Assembly: GCA_965262915.1 (NCBI GenBank)
Contig: OZ253564.1
Location: 1,088,001 to 1,152,000 of the forward strand
Direction: 5' to 3'
DNA from: Candidatus Spongiisociaceae bacterium
Lineage (GTDB): Bacteria > Actinomycetota > Acidimicrobiia > Spongiisociales > Spongiisociaceae
DNA length: 64,000 nucleotides
This document shows, piece by piece, positions 30,264 through 59,565 of the stretch. The notes beneath the pieces were generated by a model, which did not search any database, was not told where the DNA came from, and saw nothing but the letters and a program-made list of their open reading frames with translations. Every line of letters begins with the position of its first letter. Position 1 is the first letter of the stretch. Both the position numbers and the translations under genes were made by a program.

Positions 30264-31696
30264 GGCTCATCGGATTTCAGTGGGGAGTGACCGATGGGAG
30301 TAGGTCCCAGTTGGGTTTCCCCGCGTAGAGAAGGGCGCGGATTCGGTAGTTCGCGAAGTTGCGGAACCCGAACGCTGCTCGTTTGATCCGTTTGATGAGG
30401 TTGTTGAGGGCTTCGGTGGGTCCGTTGGTTACCTTCGAGATGTGCCAGTTGGTGATCTGGGGGGTCCAGCGGGCGATGGTACGACCCAGCTTGTTGATCT
30501 CGGGTGGGCAGGATTCGTGTTGGAGGTCGTCTGCGAGCTGGAGGGTGTATCGGAGAGCAAGGACCGGACTCTCGATCCCGTAGATGCCTCGTACCGTCTC
30601 TTTCGCGTGCCAGGCTGTGCGCACTTCCCCGTAGGGGTCACCAGCATCGAGGAGACCACGCAGCCGTATTTGACCCCGGTCGCTGATCCTCTCATGCGCA
30701 GCGGTTAGGAGCCGCCGTATCCGATACAGCGGGTCATCCTTGCGGCCTCGATGCCCGAGGGTTTCGTTTTGGACTCTTCGTCGTACCTCGTCGAGACGCT
30801 GGTTGGCGAGGCGGATGACGTGGAACGGGTCCGCTACCTGCAGCGCGTGCGGCAGCACCCTGTCATACGCCTTCCGATACGAACCGGACATGTCCAACAC
30901 CGCCCAGCGGATAGCCTCACACCATTCGGTGGGTTGTGACCGGAACCAGGCTGCGGCGCTTTCTGCTGTTCTACCAGGGACTATGTCGATCAGCTGGTGG
31001 CCGCCAACGTCGACGACAGAGGTGCACCAGACTTTGGTACGCCAACGGCCCCGACGCCAGAACAACGTCTCGTCCACTCCCACAGCTTCGACGGTCCCGA
31101 CCCGATCGGTGTCTGCTTCCAGCAGCGCTTCGCCCCAGCGGCCAACCTCTTTGTTCACCGTATGCCAATCACAACCAAGTTCTGCGGCGACCTCGTCGAC
31201 CGAACGGCCCCGCCCACCCACCTGGATGGTCACCCACCGGGCCGCTCGGGATGTCAACAACGCCCGTTGGGGACCAATCTTGGGGTCTTGTTCGATGAAC
31301 GATCTGAGCGCACAGTCGGGGTTCGGACATGTCCAGCGCCGTTTCCGCCACCGCAGCCGCACAGGCCGGCCGAACGCCGGTAAATCCACCAACACAACCG
31401 TCCGATAGCCCTTCGACCACACCGACCCGCCACAGGACTCACACAACGGCCGGGGCTTGCGGGACCGGATCACCACCTCCAACGGTGCCTCCTCGCCCGG
31501 GTCGTTGATCCCTACCAGATCAACCTCACCTAGGCCTACCAACTTCTCGCACATGCGCGTAGGATCAGCTTCCACAGGGGTCCTCCTGCCTCGGATGTCA
31601 TTACCAACACCCGATTATGGAGGACCCCTCCTCACTTCTGGTGGATTCCAACTCCCCCTGGCAGATCCCCTACTCCCCACTCATTTCCGAAGAGCC
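30264..31696 (-). mobile_element. Complete ISL3 family element
   Basis: TIRs GGCTCATCGGATTTCAGTGGGGAGT / GGCTCTTCGGAAATGAGTGGGGAGT; 8-bp duplication GTTTTGTT. Confidence 0.95.
30277..31575 (-). CDS. ISL3 family transposase
   Basis: Zinc finger, GVDET, LDM, DPFHV, TEALNN.IK, FGFRNF. Confidence 0.95.
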   Translation of the reverse strand: MEADPTRMCEKLVGLGEVDLVGINDPGEEAPLEVVIRSRKPRPLCESCGGSVWSKGYRTVVLVDLPAFGRPVRLRWRKRRWTCPNPDCALRSFIEQDPKIGPQRALLTSRAARWVTIQVGGRGRSVDEVAAELGCDWHTVNKEVGRWGEALLEADTDRVGTVEAVGVDETLFWRRGRWRTKVWCTSVVDVGGHQLIDIVPGRTAESAAAWFRSQPTEWCEAIRWAVLDMSGSYRKAYDRVLPHALQVADPFHVIRLANQRLDEVRRRVQNETLGHRGRKDDPLYRIRRLLTAAHERISDRGQIRLRGLLDAGDPYGEVRTAWHAKETVRGIYGIESPVLALRYTLQLADDLQHESCPPEINKLGRTIARWTPQITNWHISKVTNGPTEALNNLIKRIKRAAFGFRNFANYRIRALLYAGKPNWDLLPSVTPH

Positions 31697-54442: not shown

Positions 54443-54640
54443 CTCCTGCGGCGCTTGGCCGGGCACCCCCGTAGGTCACGAAACCGTGGGCGACAAGTCC
54501 CGGGGGCTAAGACTCAGAGGTAGTCGTGACTTGAGAGGGCTGCGCTCTCAAGCGCAAGAATTTGCACACTACTGACGTATTACGAACCTTCTTGACCCAA
54601 GATGGATCGAAACCGCTCCTATACGGCTCGGAGGCCTCCT

Positions 54641-55912
54641 ATGCTGCTCGGGTTCCAGGTCACGAACCACCGCTCGTTCCTCGGACAAACGGACTTCTCG
54701 ATGATGGCCGTGGATAAGGATCGGTCGGCGACACGCTGCTTCGAGCGTCTCTCGGAACCGGTGCTGACCGTTTCTGGGATCTACGGCCCCAACGCTTCGG
54801 GGAAGTCTAATTTTCTATATGCCATTACATGGTTATCGAACGCTGTCAGGAGATCTCTTCGAGGCTGGGACGAGTTCATCCCCCGGGATCCCCACTTGAT
54901 AGGCGAGGGTCCGGCTAGGCCGTCGGTCTTCGATATGGCGATCGTTGTCGACGGGGTTGAGTATGAGTACCGGCTCGTGGTTGACGACTCAGCGGTGCTG
55001 TACGAAAGCCTTCATGGCTATCCCGAGCGGAGGAGACGAAGGTTGTTCGAGCGAGACAAGGACGAAATCGAGTTTCGACGCGGCTTGGGTGGTGCTCGTG
55101 GAGTAGACAGTGTCCTTACGTCGACCACGTTGGCGCTGTCCGCTGCCATGCGCTTCCGGATGCCCGATGTTGGCAGCGTAGGACGCGCTATCGCAGGAAT
55201 CCGTGCCGTCGGGATTAGATGGCCTGTGGCGGGTTTCAACCCCTACTTGGACTCGACACAGCGCCTGTTCGCTGGGGAAAGCGAAGGCCGTCAGTTGACC
55301 CTTGTCGACATGCCCACAGACCGAGACGTAGCCTTGGACTTGCTGCGCTGGGCCGATCCCGCAATCTCGGATGTGGAGTTTATCGAACGGGGCGAGAACG
55401 AGGACCAACCGGCTCGGGGTTCCGCCCGTCCGTCGCGTCGTCAGTTGCAGTTCGTTCGCCGAGTTGCCGATGCGGAGTACTCTCTGGGCTTCCGTGAGGA
55501 ATCTGCAGGGACGAAGACTTGGTTCCGACTATTGGGACCAGCTCTCGGAGCCCTTGGGAGAGGTCAGGTTCTGTTGTTTGACGAAATCGACGCAAGCCTC
55601 CATCCCCGGCTCTCTAGTCAGTTGATCCAGCTCTTCCAAGACCCCGCGTCCAATCCTCGCAATGCTCAACTGGTCTTCACGACTCACGATACGTCACTGC
55701 TCAACGTTTTGAATCGCGACGAGGTTTGGCTGACAGAGAAGAGATCCGACGGGTCATCGGAACTCGTCGCGCTTGCAGAGTATGGATCTGAGAAGATACG
55801 GAAGTCGTTGAATCTTGAGAGGGCCTATCTACAGGGTCGGTTCGGAGCTATTCCCGAACCCGACCAAATCGTGATCCGCCACGCCCTCGGGCTCGCTCTT
55901 GGAGAAAGGTGA
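54641..55912 (+). CDS. RloA-like AAA_21 ATPase
   Basis: NHRSF, GPNASGKSN, ESAGT, DEIDASLHP, TTHD, YLQGRFGAIP. Confidence 0.9.
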   Translation: MLLGFQVTNHRSFLGQTDFSMMAVDKDRSATRCFERLSEPVLTVSGIYGPNASGKSNFLYAITWLSNAVRRSLRGWDEFIPRDPHLIGEGPARPSVFDMAIVVDGVEYEYRLVVDDSAVLYESLHGYPERRRRRLFERDKDEIEFRRGLGGARGVDSVLTSTTLALSAAMRFRMPDVGSVGRAIAGIRAVGIRWPVAGFNPYLDSTQRLFAGESEGRQLTLVDMPTDRDVALDLLRWADPAISDVEFIERGENEDQPARGSARPSRRQLQFVRRVADAEYSLGFREESAGTKTWFRLLGPALGALGRGQVLLFDEIDASLHPRLSSQLIQLFQDPASNPRNAQLVFTTHDTSLLNVLNRDEVWLTEKRSDGSSELVALAEYGSEKIRKSLNLERAYLQGRFGAIPEPDQIVIRHALGLALGER

Positions 55913-56310
55913 TGGCGAGATCTCGACAACGGGTACACAGGAGACGAAGACCTCGTAAAGTCGGCGTTCGTGTTCCACGAAAGACTTACCTCGTGTTCTG
56001 CGAGGGTGCGAGAACGGAGCCCGAATATATCAAAGCGCTCAAGCAAGAACCTGAGGTTCGTGCGCGTGCCTCCGTCCGGATCGGCAAGGACACAATCGGT
56101 ATCGCGCCTCCCTTGACCCTGGTTAGAGCGGCAGTCAAAGCCATCGATCGTGCCGAGGAGGAAAAGGCCGAAATCGATGAGGTTTGGTGCTTGTTCGATG
56201 TTGAGTGGCCCCACAATCACCCCAAACTGGCTCATCGCGTTTCAGTGGGGAGTGACGGTCGCGAGTAGGCCCCAGTTGGGTTTCCCGGCTCTTCGATGCT
56301 CCTATGGTTG

Positions 56311-57540
56311 TCAAATCGATGATGGGGCGGTTTGGTGGGTGTGCAGCCAGTTCTGGTATCGGGTGGCGAGGTGGTGGTTGTGGTCTCGGCCGTGTTCGAG
56401 TGCTGAGATGCGATTGGGGTGGGTTCCGACGGCTTGGGCGGTCTGGGTGAGGGTGATGCCGCGTTGTTGGCGTCGGGTGCGTAGGCGGGCGCAGTTCGGG
56501 GTTGGGTGCGGGTTGGTGAGGAGCCGGTAGATTTCTCGGGCGATGTGCCGCTTGAGGCAGCGGATGATCTCCTTTTTCTTCTTGCCCTCGGCCTTGCGTC
56601 GTGCCACGTAGGCTTTGGTGGCGGCGTCGGTGCGCATCCGGGTGGTAGCGATCCGCCATAGCGCGTTGTTGGCTTGGCGGTTGCCGCCCCGGTTGAGACG
56701 ATGCCGAAGGGTTCGTCCTGATGACGCCTGGACGGGGCTGGCGCCGCACAGCGCCGCGAAAGACCGTTCCGATTTCATTCGCTTGGGGTTGTCGCCGGCG
56801 GCGACCAACAACGCGGCGGCTGTGTCAGGACCGACACCTTCTGTGGCCAGCAGGGCCGGGTTGGCCTGGGCGCAGAGACGCCGGATCTCGGCTTCGAGTT
56901 GGGCGATCTCTACGTCGAGGGCCTGATACCGGCGGGCCAAATGCTGTAGGGCACGCTTCGCATACGCGGTGGTGGTGTGGTCTGTGCCGGGTCGGAACCG
57001 GGCACAGGTTTTGACCCGTGCTTTGAGATTCATGCCCTTTAGCTGGTGTTTTAGCGGCTCGGGAGCTGTTACGACCAGCGCATGTATCTGGTTAGCGGCC
57101 TGGGTGCGGGCCTTGACCGCGGAGCGGCGCACCACCCACAGCATCCGTATGCACTCGACCGGGCCCACACCGGACTTGGGAACCGCGGTTGCTTCGCCCG
57201 AGGCAGCTGCCCGAGCTGCCGCCTCGGCGTCGACGCTGTCGGTCTTGCCGCCCTTCTGGCGGCGTAGTTGGCGGTTGGGGCGGTTGACCTCCACCACCTC
57301 GATGTTCATCTCGGTCAGGTAACGGGCCAGGCCGGCGCCGTAACTACCCGTTCCTTCCACCCCAACCCGAACCAACTGTCCCCGCGACTCGAACCAGGTG
57401 ACCATTCGCCGATAACCGGATTCCTCCACCGCGAAAGACTCCGATCCCAGTACCCGCCCGACGCCATCCACCACCGCTGCTACGTGGACGTCCCGATGGG
57501 TGTCAACCCCACCGTAGATAATCTGGTCTGCTTCTCCCAT
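56311..57540 (-). CDS. IS110 DEDD recombinase with C-terminal HTH_XRE-like extension
   Basis: GVDTH, EGTGSYG, KTDSVDA, SSG, GGNRQAN; tail LRTRRQQRGITLTQTAQAVG...ISALEHG. Confidence 0.93.
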   Translation of the reverse strand: MGEADQIIYGGVDTHRDVHVAAVVDGVGRVLGSESFAVEESGYRRMVTWFESRGQLVRVGVEGTGSYGAGLARYLTEMNIEVVEVNRPNRQLRRQKGGKTDSVDAEAAARAAASGEATAVPKSGVGPVECIRMLWVVRRSAVKARTQAANQIHALVVTAPEPLKHQLKGMNLKARVKTCARFRPGTDHTTTAYAKRALQHLARRYQALDVEIAQLEAEIRRLCAQANPALLATEGVGPDTAAALLVAAGDNPKRMKSERSFAALCGASPVQASSGRTLRHRLNRGGNRQANNALWRIATTRMRTDAATKAYVARRKAEGKKKKEIIRCLKRHIAREIYRLLTNPHPTPNCARLRTRRQQRGITLTQTAQAVGTHPNRISALEHGRDHNHHLATRYQNWLHTHQTAPSSI

Positions 57541-57559
57541 GATGCTCTTCTCCTCTAGG

Positions 57560-57755
57560 GGATAGAATCATTTCCGATCCCCGGACCCGTGTGCGGTTGG
57601 ACAGGCCACTCACGGTGGAGAAGTTGAAGGCTCCTATTAGGTCACATCCGCCCCGGGTCAGGGGGTTACGCCCCAGGCCGGGAACGGGCCGACAGATCGA
57701 TGAAAAGGCACAAGGCCAGATTTCAGTTGGGTCAGACCCGCCCTAGCCCAGGAAC
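57560..57755 (-). ncRNA. Putative IS110 bridge RNA
   Basis: Two loops carrying guide matches to target and donor sequences (see findings); ends approximate. Confidence 0.75.
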
Positions 57756-59565
57756 CCTCCAATTATGAGTGGATTTCAGTGGGGAGTGACCGATGCGAGG
57801 AGGTCCCAGTTGGGTTTCCCGGCGTAGAGAAGGGCGCGGATTCGGTAGTTCGCGAAGTTGGGTAACCCGAACGCTGCTCGTTTGATCCGCTTTATGAGGT
57901 TGTTGAGGGCTTCGGTGGCATCTGTTGGTTACCTTCGAGATGTGCCAGTTGGTGATCTGGGGGGTCCAGCGGGCGATGGTGCGACCCAGCTTGTTGATCT
58001 CGGGTGGGCAGGATTCGTCCTGGAGGTCGTCCGCGAGCCCGACGGTGTACCGGAGAGCAAGGACCGGACTTTCGATCCCGTAGATGCCCCGTACCGTTTC
58101 GGTCGCGTGCCAGGCTGTGCGTACCTCCCCGTGGGGGTCACCGGCGTCCAAAAGACCACGCAGCCGTGTTTGACCGCGGTCGCTGATCCTCTCATGCGCG
58201 GCGGTGAGGAGGCGGCGTATCCGATACAGCGGGTCATCCTTGCGGCCTCTGTGTCCCAGGGTTTCGTTTTGGACTCTTCGTCGTAGGTCGTCGAGACGCT
58301 GGTTGGCGAGGCGGCTGACACCGAACGGGTCCGCTACCCCGGGGGCGTGGGGCAGCACCCTGTCATACGCCTTCCGATACGAACCGGACATGACCCGACA
58401 CCGCCCAGCGGATAGCCTCACACCATTCGGTGGGCTGCGCCCGGAACCAGGCTGCGGCGCTTTCTGCCGTTCTACCACCGACTATGTCGAACCGGCTGGT
58501 GGCCTCCCACGTCGACGACAGAGGTGCACCAGACCTTGGTACGCCACCGGCCTTTCCGCCAGAACAACGCTTCTTGTCGATGCCCACAGCTTGGACCTCG
58601 CCTATCCGGTCGGTGTCGGCCCCCAGGAGGGCTTCGCCCCAGCGGCCGACCTCGTTGTTCACCGTATGCCACCCACAACCAAGCTCTGCGGCGACCTCGT
58701 CGACCGGGCGACCCCGCCCACCCACCCCGATGGTCACCCACCTCGCCGCTCGGGATGTCAACAACGCCCGTTGGGGACCAATCGTGGGGTCTTGCTCGAT
58801 GAACGATCTGAGCGCACAGTCGGTGTTCGGACATGTCCAACGGCGTTTCCGCCACCGCAGCCGAACCGGACGGCCGAACGCCGGTAAATCCACCAACACC
58901 ACCGTCCGCTCACCCTTGGACCACACCGGGCCACCACAGGCCTCACAGGACGGCCGGGGCTTGCGGGACCCGATCACCACCCCAAGCGGTGCACCCTCGC
59001 CCGAGTCGTTGATCCCTACCAGGTCAACGTCGCCTAGGCCTACCAACTTCTCGCACATGCGCGCAGGGATCAGCTTCCACAGGGGTCCTCCTGCCTCGGA
59101 TGTCGCTTATCAACAGCCGATTATGGAGGACCCCTCCTCACTTCTGGTGGATTCCGATCCCCCCTGGCAGATCCCCTACTCCCCACCCATTCGCGAAGAG
59201 CCCCCAAACTCGACCAGACCGTGGCTCTCGCCAAGAGGAAGAATGTACAGATTGCTGTATCGAATCCAAGCTTCGAGTTATGGCTCGCTCTTCATTTTCG
59301 AGACTGTCCAGGATGGCTAGACACCAAAGCCGCGGAGAGGCTACGCAAGAGTCATGACGGCAGTACAGACAAGGGCGTGAATGGGGCAATGTACATGCGG
59401 ATGCGACTGATCGGGCTCTTGGTCTAGCAGAGAAGCACGAGAAACAGGGAACACGGTTTCCACACGACAACCCATCATCAGGTATGTACTTCCTCCTCCA
59501 AGCAGTCGACCCCACCATTACGTGAAACCCTGAGCTTCCCGGAGAGTGGCTTGGTTTGGGCTCGG

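Follow-up and report, generated by a model that had tools for sequence, protein, structure and literature searches.

Among described mobile elements, those closest to the one reported here are RNA-guided recombinase elements of the IS110 and IS1111 types. The geometry and mechanism of IS621 have been set out by Durrant et al. 2024 (PMC11208160) and Hiraizumi et al. 2024 (PMC11208158); according to the loop rule given in the former account, the 5' guide of a loop reads like the top strand, to which the 3' guide is complementary. The IS1111-type seekRNA elements (IS4321/IS5075-like) are described as DEDD-family elements with RNA-guided target choice, which lie at a fixed position and in a fixed orientation in the terminal repeat of another element, of the Tn3/Tn21 kind; they possess 11–13-bp subterminal inverted repeats, and their non-coding region follows the gene (PMC11187229). 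ISPpu9, ISPpu10 and other REP-inserting IS110 elements, as described, use a multi-copy, non-essential host intergenic repeat as their landing site. In our literature search, ISL3 ends did not appear as a target of any IS110 element or bridge RNA; the target catalogue of Durrant et al. might list such a case.

The window (the whole stretch of 64,000 nucleotides that was analyzed) carries an element which, judging from its sequence, is very probably of the IS110 rather than the IS1111 type, with a DEDD/Ser recombinase and a left-end bridge RNA that directs insertion into an ISL3 terminal repeat (Table 1). It is clearly a natural example of the mechanism described in 2024 and not a new kind of system. 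As in the published description of IS621, the non-coding RNA lies in the left end upstream of the gene (57541–57770, 230 nt), the target loop precedes the donor loop, the 3' guide is accompanied by core-complementary bases and a handshake-like base, and there are no terminal inverted repeats; a promoter across the putative circle junction is predicted in silico. With the IS1111-type elements, as characterized in PMC11187229, it shares the DEDD family, the RNA-guided choice of target and the fixed position and orientation in the terminal repeat of another element; it differs from them in that inverted matches between its outermost 60 nt at either end reach no more than 6 nt, in that the RNA lies upstream of the gene, and in that the target is ISL3. 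The landing site is a multi-copy, non-essential repeat, as reported for ISPpu9 and ISPpu10, but here it is the functional end of a mobile element, and a natural target of this kind (a repeat of another insertion sequence) also distinguishes our element from IS621 as published.

Table 1. Coordinates of the features discussed, numbered from the first letter of the window
Feature	Position	Strand	Basis or remark
IS110-family element, family A	56295..57770	-	1476 bp inserted; genome BLAST and junction reading
Recombinase gene, 409 aa	56311..57540	-	DEDD_Tnp_IS110, Transposase_20, C-terminal HTH_31/HTH_3 (Pfam)
Detached ISL3 terminal repeat tip GGCTCTTC	56287..56294	-	sequence reading
Remainder of host ISL3	57771..59202	-	transposase broken into two overlapping ORFs
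Extra partial ISL3 end, GGCTCATCGCG type	56229..56289	-	directly upstream of the detached tip
Predicted bridge-RNA scaffold	57593..57744	-	match to covariance model R1, 151.2 bits
Apical GGC/GCC hairpin of the target loop	57707..57718	-	unchanged in 20/20 aligned sequences
Putative left target guide ACUGAAAUC plus U able to wobble-pair	57718..57727	-	equals top strand of ISL3 flank ACTGAAATC(C)
Putative right target guide UCAUC plus invariant GAU	57696..57703	-	UCAUC is the reverse complement of GATGA
Putative left donor guide AUAGGAGC	57630..57637	-	equals right end positions -11 to -4
Putative right donor guide UGAGUG plus G	57606..57612	-	reverse complement of left end C+ACTCA
-10 hexamer CATAAT, left end	57762..57767	-	sequence reading
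-35 hexamer TTGACA, right end	56309..56314	-	14 nt from the end
Empty ISL3 end GGCTCATCGGATTTCAG, candidate target	30264..30280	+	guide match

The recombinase possesses an N-terminal RuvC-like DEDD domain (PF01548, E 1.2e-23) and a C-terminal Tnp domain (PF02371, E 1.7e-19). Its similarity to IS621 is distant (chain 8wt6, E 9.5e-12) and, unlike IS621, it has an additional C-terminal HTH domain. The catalytic residues are nevertheless aligned: GVDTH, VEGTG and KTDSVDA correspond to GIDTA, IEATG and KTDTVDA of IS621, which contain the four acidic residues of the DEDD tetrad, and ..ASSGRT is aligned to the catalytic serine segment ..YESGSS. The protein has at least 7999 homologues, many of them 409 aa long and with the same domains.

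In the sense orientation the family A element reads ACTCAT...GGAGCATC, and its plus-strand junctions are GGCTCTTC|GATGCTCC... and ...ATGAGT|GGATTTCAGTGGGG. These two readings indicate that the element splits an ISL3 end, 9 bp from the tip of the terminal repeat. The initial annotation had recognized this split, but its extent (56287–57790) took in ISL3 flank and has been corrected in Table 1. We assign the G at 57771 to the target, and have set the element boundary at that point, because of the empty sites of the sister family E (see below), from which it may be inferred. The ORFs 57732–58478 and 58363–59058 of the host match DDE_Tnp_ISL3 and Zn_ribbon_ISL3 (Pfam); the longest is 247 aa, compared with about 445 aa in intact copies, and an 8-bp duplication, CCCAAACT, at 56221–56228 and 59203–59210 flanks the entire composite. 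The split repeat probably disables this ISL3 copy, and it is on such a presumed consequence that the earlier term "parasite of ISL3" bears. The association between occupancy and a broken ISL3 gene may merely mirror the age of the copies.

All guide segments were found, on the minus strand, exactly where the initial annotation had placed them, both stem arms (GGGCGGGTCTGAC / GTCGGCCCGTTC) and the GGC/GCC hairpin are present, and the order of the loops and their strand logic agree with the IS621 layout that it had invoked, as given in PMC11208160. The structure is supported by the alignment and not by single-sequence folding, since the minimum free energy fold by itself is unremarkable (z = -1.47). 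In the alignment, 91.7% of the scaffold cells are paired compared with 86.1% in shuffles (0/500 shuffles as high), and this value falls to 31–50% when the partners are slid; nine pairs are altered on both sides. The basal stems of the target and donor loops are paired in 97% and 82%, respectively, with four pairs changed on both sides in each. These pair counts were taken from an alignment fitted to the covariance model itself, and the donor-loop stem, which RNAalifold alone missed, was named by eye from the alignment and then tested after re-alignment to the model. None of the Rfam 15 families matches the non-coding end of the element, even at E up to 10; in 55500–59500 Rfam gave three weak, unrelated matches far under the gathering scores.

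The segment at 57719–57727, read on the minus strand, is ACTGAAATC, identical to the ISL3 top strand at the left target flank, as had been noticed. The second segment, TCATCGA (57697–57703), was said to be one mismatch away from the occupied site; this proved to be the case (GAAGA against GATGA), and the match extends to TCATCGAT at 57696–57703. The GAU that follows UCAUC is kept in 20/20 aligned RNAs and complements the donor end A+TC, not the target. Relative to sister families, the register of the left target guide is displaced by one base, or else this guide is 10 nt long and ends in a G.U wobble; two registers among sister families are a further difference from IS621 in its published form. 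The ISL3 end at 30264, which had been put forward as an empty candidate target, has retained that status: among the empty versions of this ISL3 end GGCTCATCGGATTTCAG is the most frequent, the site is identical to sites occupied elsewhere over the guide-matched bases, and its ISL3 has a 445-aa ORF and belongs to a near-identical clade with one occupied member. Ends of the GGCTCATCGCG type, a variant mismatched to the guides, are occupied in 0/8 cases versus 16/35 for GGA-type ends (Fisher p = 0.018, which is overstated due to kin copies).

We dropped the idea that insertion is confined to the rare ISL3 end with a single G, GGCTCATCGATTTCAG, in view of the family E empty sites: these show that the C before ACTCAT is derived from the target, which makes the common GG form the substrate. 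The single copy with the single-G end (genome position 306080) is empty, despite a perfect guide match in the IS621-style 14-nt geometry.

In the second loop, 57630–57637 and 57606–57612 (minus strand) read ATAGGAGC and TGAGTGG. They do match the element's own two ends, as had been proposed, with the qualification that 3 nt are left between the match of the left donor guide and the right end, unlike in IS621 as described. The donor loop covaries with the right end, both having GAAGC in L006 and both GTAGGAGC in family D and L004, so that this covariation rests on two independent changes. At its seventh position the right donor guide carries a G, which pairs with the leading C of the target-side CC. 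Among guide types the base at this position complements the first target-side core base in 8/8 assessable cases (those in which that base is not T), and it never pairs with the donor T, since it is never A. Family F displays a switch at this position, with G accompanying CC in G000 and U accompanying AC in G002 and G001. Donor and target agree in the second core base (C) only: the donor core is TC and target cores are CC, AC or TC, which departs from IS621 as reported, where one core dinucleotide is common to both and pairs with the two guides of each loop. Such a mismatch lessens the likeness to IS621 in detail, although an identical core is not family-defining. A 3-bp core, ATC, was discarded, as there is no ATC at the left junction in families E, C and F. 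When the two ends are abutted in silico, and only then, they yield TTGACA-17-CATAAT, an 11/12 match; a promoter scan of the integrated context found no promoter-like site.

The relation between guides and sites was compared for 13 guide types in 37 elements from five genomes, over 14 guide positions. Sister elements have closely similar ends and about 70–80% nucleotide identity, yet very different insertion sites: families A and B insert into one ISL3 repeat; families E, D and G use another ISL3-family element, at three sites; and the target of family F is an IS3-like repeat. The score of a guide against its own site is 11–14 of 14 in 36/37 elements, whereas against the site of another type it averages 6.24 (156 pairings); nine of these cross-type pairings reach at least 12, two near-identical pairs of types being evident among them. 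These data bear on the idea that the protein alone recognizes the ISL3 repeat, for instance through its C-terminal HTH, and that the RNA matches are incidental. The HTH_31/HTH_3 domain is indeed additional to what IS621 possesses, and the bridge RNA is predicted from sequence alone; but the HTH domain is common to lineages with differing targets, and the differing sites of similar sister elements are predicted, in 36/37 elements, by just two hypervariable RNA segments, while the remaining scaffold is conserved. We therefore regard recognition by the protein alone as very unlikely.

The guide pair ACUGAAAUC / UCAUC occurs in 17 RNA-model matches in the genome. Sixteen of them lie at the same ISL3 end position, with the left flank ..ACTGAAATC|C (in one case the variant ACTGAGATC); a right end could be located for 15 of them, and the flank beyond it is GATGAGCC in 11 copies and GAAGAGCC in the other four. 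The public Acidimicrobiia MAG contig OZ244034.1 has two copies, both with an ISL3-end left flank, and GATGAGCC follows in the one whose right end was found. The suggestion that collected copies should be flanked by ISL3 ends is thus borne out. The same junction in all copies could also have arisen if one ancestral insertion was followed by multiplication of the ISL3::IS110 composite, by ISL3 transposition or segmental duplication, and three occupied ends with extra partial ISL3 ends upstream do point to local rearrangement. The hosts, however, differ from one another much more than their IS110 copies do. In family A the mean pairwise identity is 99.6% for the element and 89.8% for the first 600 nt of the host ISL3, the host being less alike in 28/28 pairs and the two values uncorrelated (r = 0.01); in family B the corresponding means are 94.8% and 89.7%, with the host less alike in 15/15 pairs. 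At a 98.5% threshold 15/16 occupied hosts are singletons, families A and B are each present in several ISL3 subtypes, and a split repeat should hamper ISL3 transposition. The insertions are therefore best explained as independent events, and we find multiplication of a composite extremely improbable.

Many diverged ISL3 copies could, on the other hand, serve as homology arms by which the element spread through homologous recombination or gene conversion, and the body of the window host does look hybrid: it is closest to GGCTCATCGCG-type copies, yet its first 30 nt differ. We nonetheless attach hardly any probability to this route, because on the tip side just 8–9 bp of ISL3 (9 bp to the tip) separate the element from unique DNA; moreover, subtype-specific ISL3 polymorphisms persist inside the 20–30 nt next to the junction, and the same guide rule holds in unrelated targets of sister families. 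The distribution of copies, the covariation of guides and the conserved catalytic residues together favor the RNA-guided reading proposed in the initial annotation, as far as sequence comparison can indicate.

A search of 40 other genomes gave no copy above 90% identity to family A, the homologues being 63–85% identical; the unpublished G028 serves as a basis for none of our claims. A scan of JGI metagenomes for the exact guide pattern gave 0 matches. In four of 24 public runs (X1, X5, X17 and X18), which consist of short repeat-fragment contigs that cannot show absence, there was no joint of 56295 and 57770, such as a circle or an empty site would give. The joints 56251>57801 and 57858>56279 were discarded as IS110 junctions, both falling in ISL3 sequence. 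Run X17 (RNA by guess) includes a 163-nt contig, 57608–57769, that is deeper than the gene contigs, at a depth that cannot rank parts of the gene.

For independent, RNA-guided insertion we propose the following course of events. [quoted passage not shown] The circle junction may rebuild a strong promoter for the RNA. The top strand would dictate the product, the left junction retaining the target CC and the right junction the donor TC, and IS621-like core and handshake positions could be represented by the invariant GAU that follows UCAUC and by base seven of the right donor guide.

The known mechanism is unchanged by these findings, and their value is that of a worked natural example. IS110 recombinases are under development as genome-writing tools, and naturally reprogrammed guides show which variation is tolerated: here, in one genome and its relatives, a conserved scaffold carries 13 guide types, the left target guide shifts its register by one base, target and donor cores differ in their first base, a handshake-like base of the donor loop tracks the target, and there is one likely case of guidance in trans. 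The habit of landing in terminal repeats of other transposons, known for IS1111-type elements at Tn21 ends, is extended to elements of the IS110 type and to ISL3 and IS3-like ends. The findings also suggest that insertion sequences may keep each other in check. One may speculate, tentatively, about a radiating guild, in this genome and its relatives, of bridge-RNA IS110 elements with common donor ends and reprogrammed target loops, hyperparasitic on the termini of insertion sequences; we consider this somewhat doubtful. If it were true, splitting of the repeats may silence the hosts, and GGCTCATCGCG-type ends may be escape alleles. Equally tentatively, the uniform top-strand-type junctions despite core mismatches would constitute natural evidence for a copy-and-paste process that exchanges only the top strand.

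Since the donor ends are common, the RNA of one lineage may mobilize the DNA of another in trans. The initial annotation had named copies at unrelated sites as evidence against its reading, and there is a single such copy, Bx (genome 3663632–3665110), which has the A/B guides and an own-site score of just 6/14. Its site fits the guide of sister family C at 12/14 positions, and guidance in trans is the likely explanation of this pattern of matches.

The IS110 insertion under study, a copy of the element family that we term A, encodes a recombinase whose top match among solved structures is the IS621 transposase (8wt6, E 9.5e-12); in the alignment with 8wt6, the RuvC-like site retains its four acidic residues and the Tnp domain its serine. 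The recombinase family is large and ordinary, with at least 7999 homologues, many of them 409 aa long with the identical domain set. The element splits an ISL3 end, as the initial annotation had described: the cut in the repeat GGCTC(A/T)TCG|GATTTCAGTGGGGAGT lies 9 bp from the tip. In the element sense (minus strand) the left junction reads ...CCCCACTGAAATC C|ACTCATAATTGG... and the right junction ...CCATAGGAGCATC|GAAGAGCC. The exact boundaries can be drawn from a sister lineage, family E, of which three empty sites read GCGCGAAAACGTGGGTT and the occupied sites read ...GCGCGAAAAC|ACTCAT and GGAGCATC|GTGGGTT; thus, the C preceding ACTCAT belongs to the target, and the mobile unit reads ACTCAT...GGAGCATC. 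Applied to family A, this rule removes an apparent one-base discrepancy, and excision of the element in silico yields exactly GGCTCATCGGATTTCAG, the commonest empty ISL3 end. In IS621 terms the donor is ...AGGAGCA-TC-ACTCAT... and the target ACTGAAAT-CC-GATGAGCC, with the CC of the target retained at the left junction and the TC of the donor at the right junction.

Coordinates of the features discussed (window positions unless marked as genome or locus)
Feature	Coordinates	Strand	Remarks
IS110 insertion (family A)	56295-57770, 1476 bp	minus	Sequence reading of 56100-58000
Recombinase gene	56311-57540, 409 aa	minus	Pfam DEDD_Tnp_IS110, Transposase_20, C-terminal HTH_31/HTH_3
Host ISL3-family element	56229-59202		Transposase broken into two overlapping ORFs
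Partial CGCG-type ISL3 end, 58-61 bp	56229-56289		Directly upstream of the detached tip
8-bp duplication CCCAAACT	56221-56228 and 59203-59210		On either side of the host ISL3
AAA_21 ATPase gene (436 aa), then RloB-like gene	54602-56228 and 59211-59427
Other extra partial ISL3 ends	genome 677109-677241 (~133 bp); 660201-660533 (~340 bp)		Upstream of occupied ends
Bx, copy at a site unlike the ISL3 end	genome 3663632-3665110
Pair of inverted family E elements	genome 541942-546194		1323 bp between the two elements
Empty ISL3 end with a single G	genome 306069-306096 (306080)		GGCTCATCGATTTCAG
Reverse, nested insertions	genome 4175386-4176966; 4464053-4466853
L026, sister locus	G021:C1, locus 1296-1500	minus

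The left ends of sister elements from this genome and four related genomes (G001, G002, G007 and G021) fit one conserved scaffold, in which only the nine bases after GUCUGAC-NNN and the five bases before the invariant GAUCUGUC are hypervariable. We compared the 5' segment in the sense of the left flank and the 3' segment as the complement of the first five bases of the right flank, which is the guide strand logic described for IS621 (PMC11208160). In 36 of 37 elements, representing 13 guide types, the 5' segment matches the element's own site at 7-9 of 9 positions (8-9 in 34/37) and the 3' segment at 3-5 of 5 (4-5 in 35/37), for a total of 11-14/14, which supports the interpretation in the initial annotation that this IS110 element is guided by RNA to ISL3 ends. 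Guides paired with the site of another type score on average 6.24 over 156 pairings, nine of which reach at least 12; among the guide types there are at least two pairs that are only one or two bases apart. In every sequence the 3' target guide is followed by GAU, which complements A+TC at the donor right end and not the targets. In IS621, once the top strands have been exchanged, the incoming donor core is paired with the right target guide, and the bases after this guide, termed the handshake guide, pair with the donor positions directly preceding the core (PMC11208158); by analogy, GAU may be the counterpart of these core/handshake bases.

Sequence reading bears out the positions that the initial annotation gave for the four guide segments, the stem arms and the small hairpin. 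RNAalifold recovered the stem at the base of the target loop, which shows compensatory changes, as well as an invariant GGC/GCC hairpin; the donor-loop stem was added by eye from the alignment, and a covariance model of the candidate bridge RNA (R1) was then built. Among 31 matches re-aligned to R1, a procedure that favours the structure because the alignment is fitted to the model, paired cells make up 91.7% overall versus 86.1% in shuffles (0/500 reach the observed value) and 31-50% with slid partners, and 9 pairs are changed on both sides versus 4.8 expected (0/500). The single-sequence fold is unremarkable taken alone (z = -1.47). The second loop also agrees with its earlier description as matching the element's own ends: AUAGGAGC equals positions -11 to -4 of the right end, and UGAGUG complements C+ACTCA at the left end. 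The left donor guide and the right end change jointly in two lineages (GAAGC in L006; GTAGGAGC in family D and L004). The base following UGAGUG is never A and hence does not pair with the donor's T; it complements the first target-side core base in all 8 assessable types where that base is not T, and is U opposite T in the 4 guide types with a TC target core. In family F it is G with a CC target in this genome and U with an AC target in G002 and G001. Such behaviour would be expected of a handshake position. Abutting the element ends brings TTGACA, located 14 nt from the right end, to a spacing of 17 nt from CATAAT, located 3 nt into the left end, and the two match 11/12 promoter positions; in the integrated state the best -35/-10 combination reaches only 8/12, and a promoter scan of the integrated context found no promoter-like site. 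A junction promoter is described as a known trait of these element families (PMC11187229), and integrated IS621 copies are reported to be weakly expressed (PMC13626964).

A search of the 5.06-Mb genome by BLAST and the covariance model identified 36 related RNA genes, 17 of which carry the guide pair ACUGAAAUC / UCAUC. When these copies were collected, as had been proposed in the initial annotation, 16 of the 17 were found to have an ISL3 left flank; the right flank of the 15 with a findable right end is GATGAGCC in 11 and GAAGAGCC in 4, and in the sixteenth the right end was truncated by a later ISL3 insertion. They form two element families: A, with 8 full copies (minimum pairwise identity 99.25%), and B, ~81% identical to A and 92.6-98.6% among its copies. 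Host ISL3 copies of family A have a mean identity of 89.8%, and those of family B 89.7%; the hosts are less alike than their elements in 28/28 family A pairs and 15/15 family B pairs, and at a threshold of 98.5% identity 15 of the 16 occupied hosts remain singletons. Since the hosts are far more diverged than the elements, these are separate insertions into long-separated ISL3 copies and did not arise by multiplication of a single ISL3::IS110 composite; spread of the element by gene conversion between ISL3 copies is unlikely because the tip side holds only 9 bp of ISL3. The exact guide pattern had no match in the JGI metagenome collection and two in a single public genome, OZ244034.1 (titled Acidimicrobiia MAG), both with an ISL3-end left flank and, in the copy whose right end was found, with GATGAGCC as right flank.

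The expectation that all copies lie in ISL3 ends fails for Bx alone, which carries A/B guides at the site AAAGAACCC|ACCGCC, with an own-guide score of 6/14. Its flanks score 12/14 with the guides of family C and 2-7 with the other eleven types. Since the donor-loop targets are common to all families and the site fits the C guide, guidance in trans is reasonable: from this single case, Bx may be read as a B-type circle inserted under a C-type RNA.

Sister lineages also sit in other insertion sequences, and the same target types are found again in related genomes. A second ISL3-family element, distinct from the first (its 408-aa protein matches DDE_Tnp_ISL3, E 4e-59), carries family E in both of its terminal repeats and families D and G at two further sites near its ends; family F lies 12 bp from the tip of a repeat adjoining an HTH_21 + rve (IS3-like) gene, and family C adjoins another IS110-family gene. 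One copy of the second ISL3-family element carries two inverted family E elements, one in each terminal repeat. At L026 the left-end start motif repeats every 51 nt upstream of the element, and the left flank is guide-coding DNA of another copy, a pattern suggestive of insertion, more than once, into the element's own sequence for the left target guide.

At the level of sequence this candidate bridge-RNA element conforms to the IS110 type, and not to the IS1111 type. Unlike in IS621, the donor and target cores share the second base only, and in families A, B, D2 and the F copy of this genome the nine-base guide match stops one base before the invariant C. In these, the RNA base that follows (U; C in L002 and L004) is able to pair with the invariant C, whereas the guide end coincides with that C in families C, D, E, G and H; thus, two registers, or 9- and 10-nt guides, coexist on one scaffold. 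Among the A/B copies inserted in ISL3 ends, 16/16 left junctions and 15/15 of the right junctions that could be found have a core of the top-strand type. Were both strands exchanged across a mismatched core, replication should yield a mixture of outcomes; the uniform junctions fit a product dictated by the top strand, with which the copy-and-paste proposal (10.64898/2026.08.31.748434) is consistent; they also fit an overlap confined to the shared C. IS4321 and IS5075 are established examples of elements that target the terminal repeat of another transposon (reference entry in PMC11187229). Our literature search found no paper on ISL3 ends as the target of an IS110 or bridge-RNA element, and supplementary catalogues of natural targets may contain such cases. 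The mechanism is already known; what is useful here is a natural series of reprogrammed guides, together with the ecology of insertion sequences living on insertion sequences.

With an intact ISL3 transposase defined as a longest ORF of at least 440 aa (our threshold), such an ORF is present in 3/16 occupied versus 14/19 empty copies with the GGA-type end (Fisher p = 0.002, kin treated as independent). Two mismatches adjoin the crossover in the GGCTCATCGCG end variant, which is occupied in 0/8 cases versus 16/35 (p = 0.018, kin again treated as independent). Both patterns fit silencing of ISL3 and escape of the variant, and are explained equally well by copy age and relatedness. Six full GGCTCATCGCG-type copies have longest ORFs of only 234-247 aa (e.g. 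1601861, 1720275 and 3227229, mutually at least 98.5% alike), and may be either non-autonomous or frameshift users. The empty end with a single G is the only perfect in-register 14-nt match to both guides, yet it is unoccupied.

The host ISL3 in the window sits within the RloB-like gene, which is split by the ISL3/IS110 composite; it is possible that the AAA_21/RloB-like pair represents defence-type genes inactivated by this insertion. The duplication encloses the entire composite, including the extra partial ISL3 end. Such partial ends accompany 3 of the 16 occupied ends, in the orientation of the occupied end, and none was seen in a non-systematic look through the listing of empty ISL3 ends; they could have arisen by nested ISL3 insertion followed by recombination. 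Reverse insertions occur at two nested loci: an ISL3 end adjoins position 27 of a family A element, and a family D-like element is interrupted by an ISL3 tip that itself holds a family B element.
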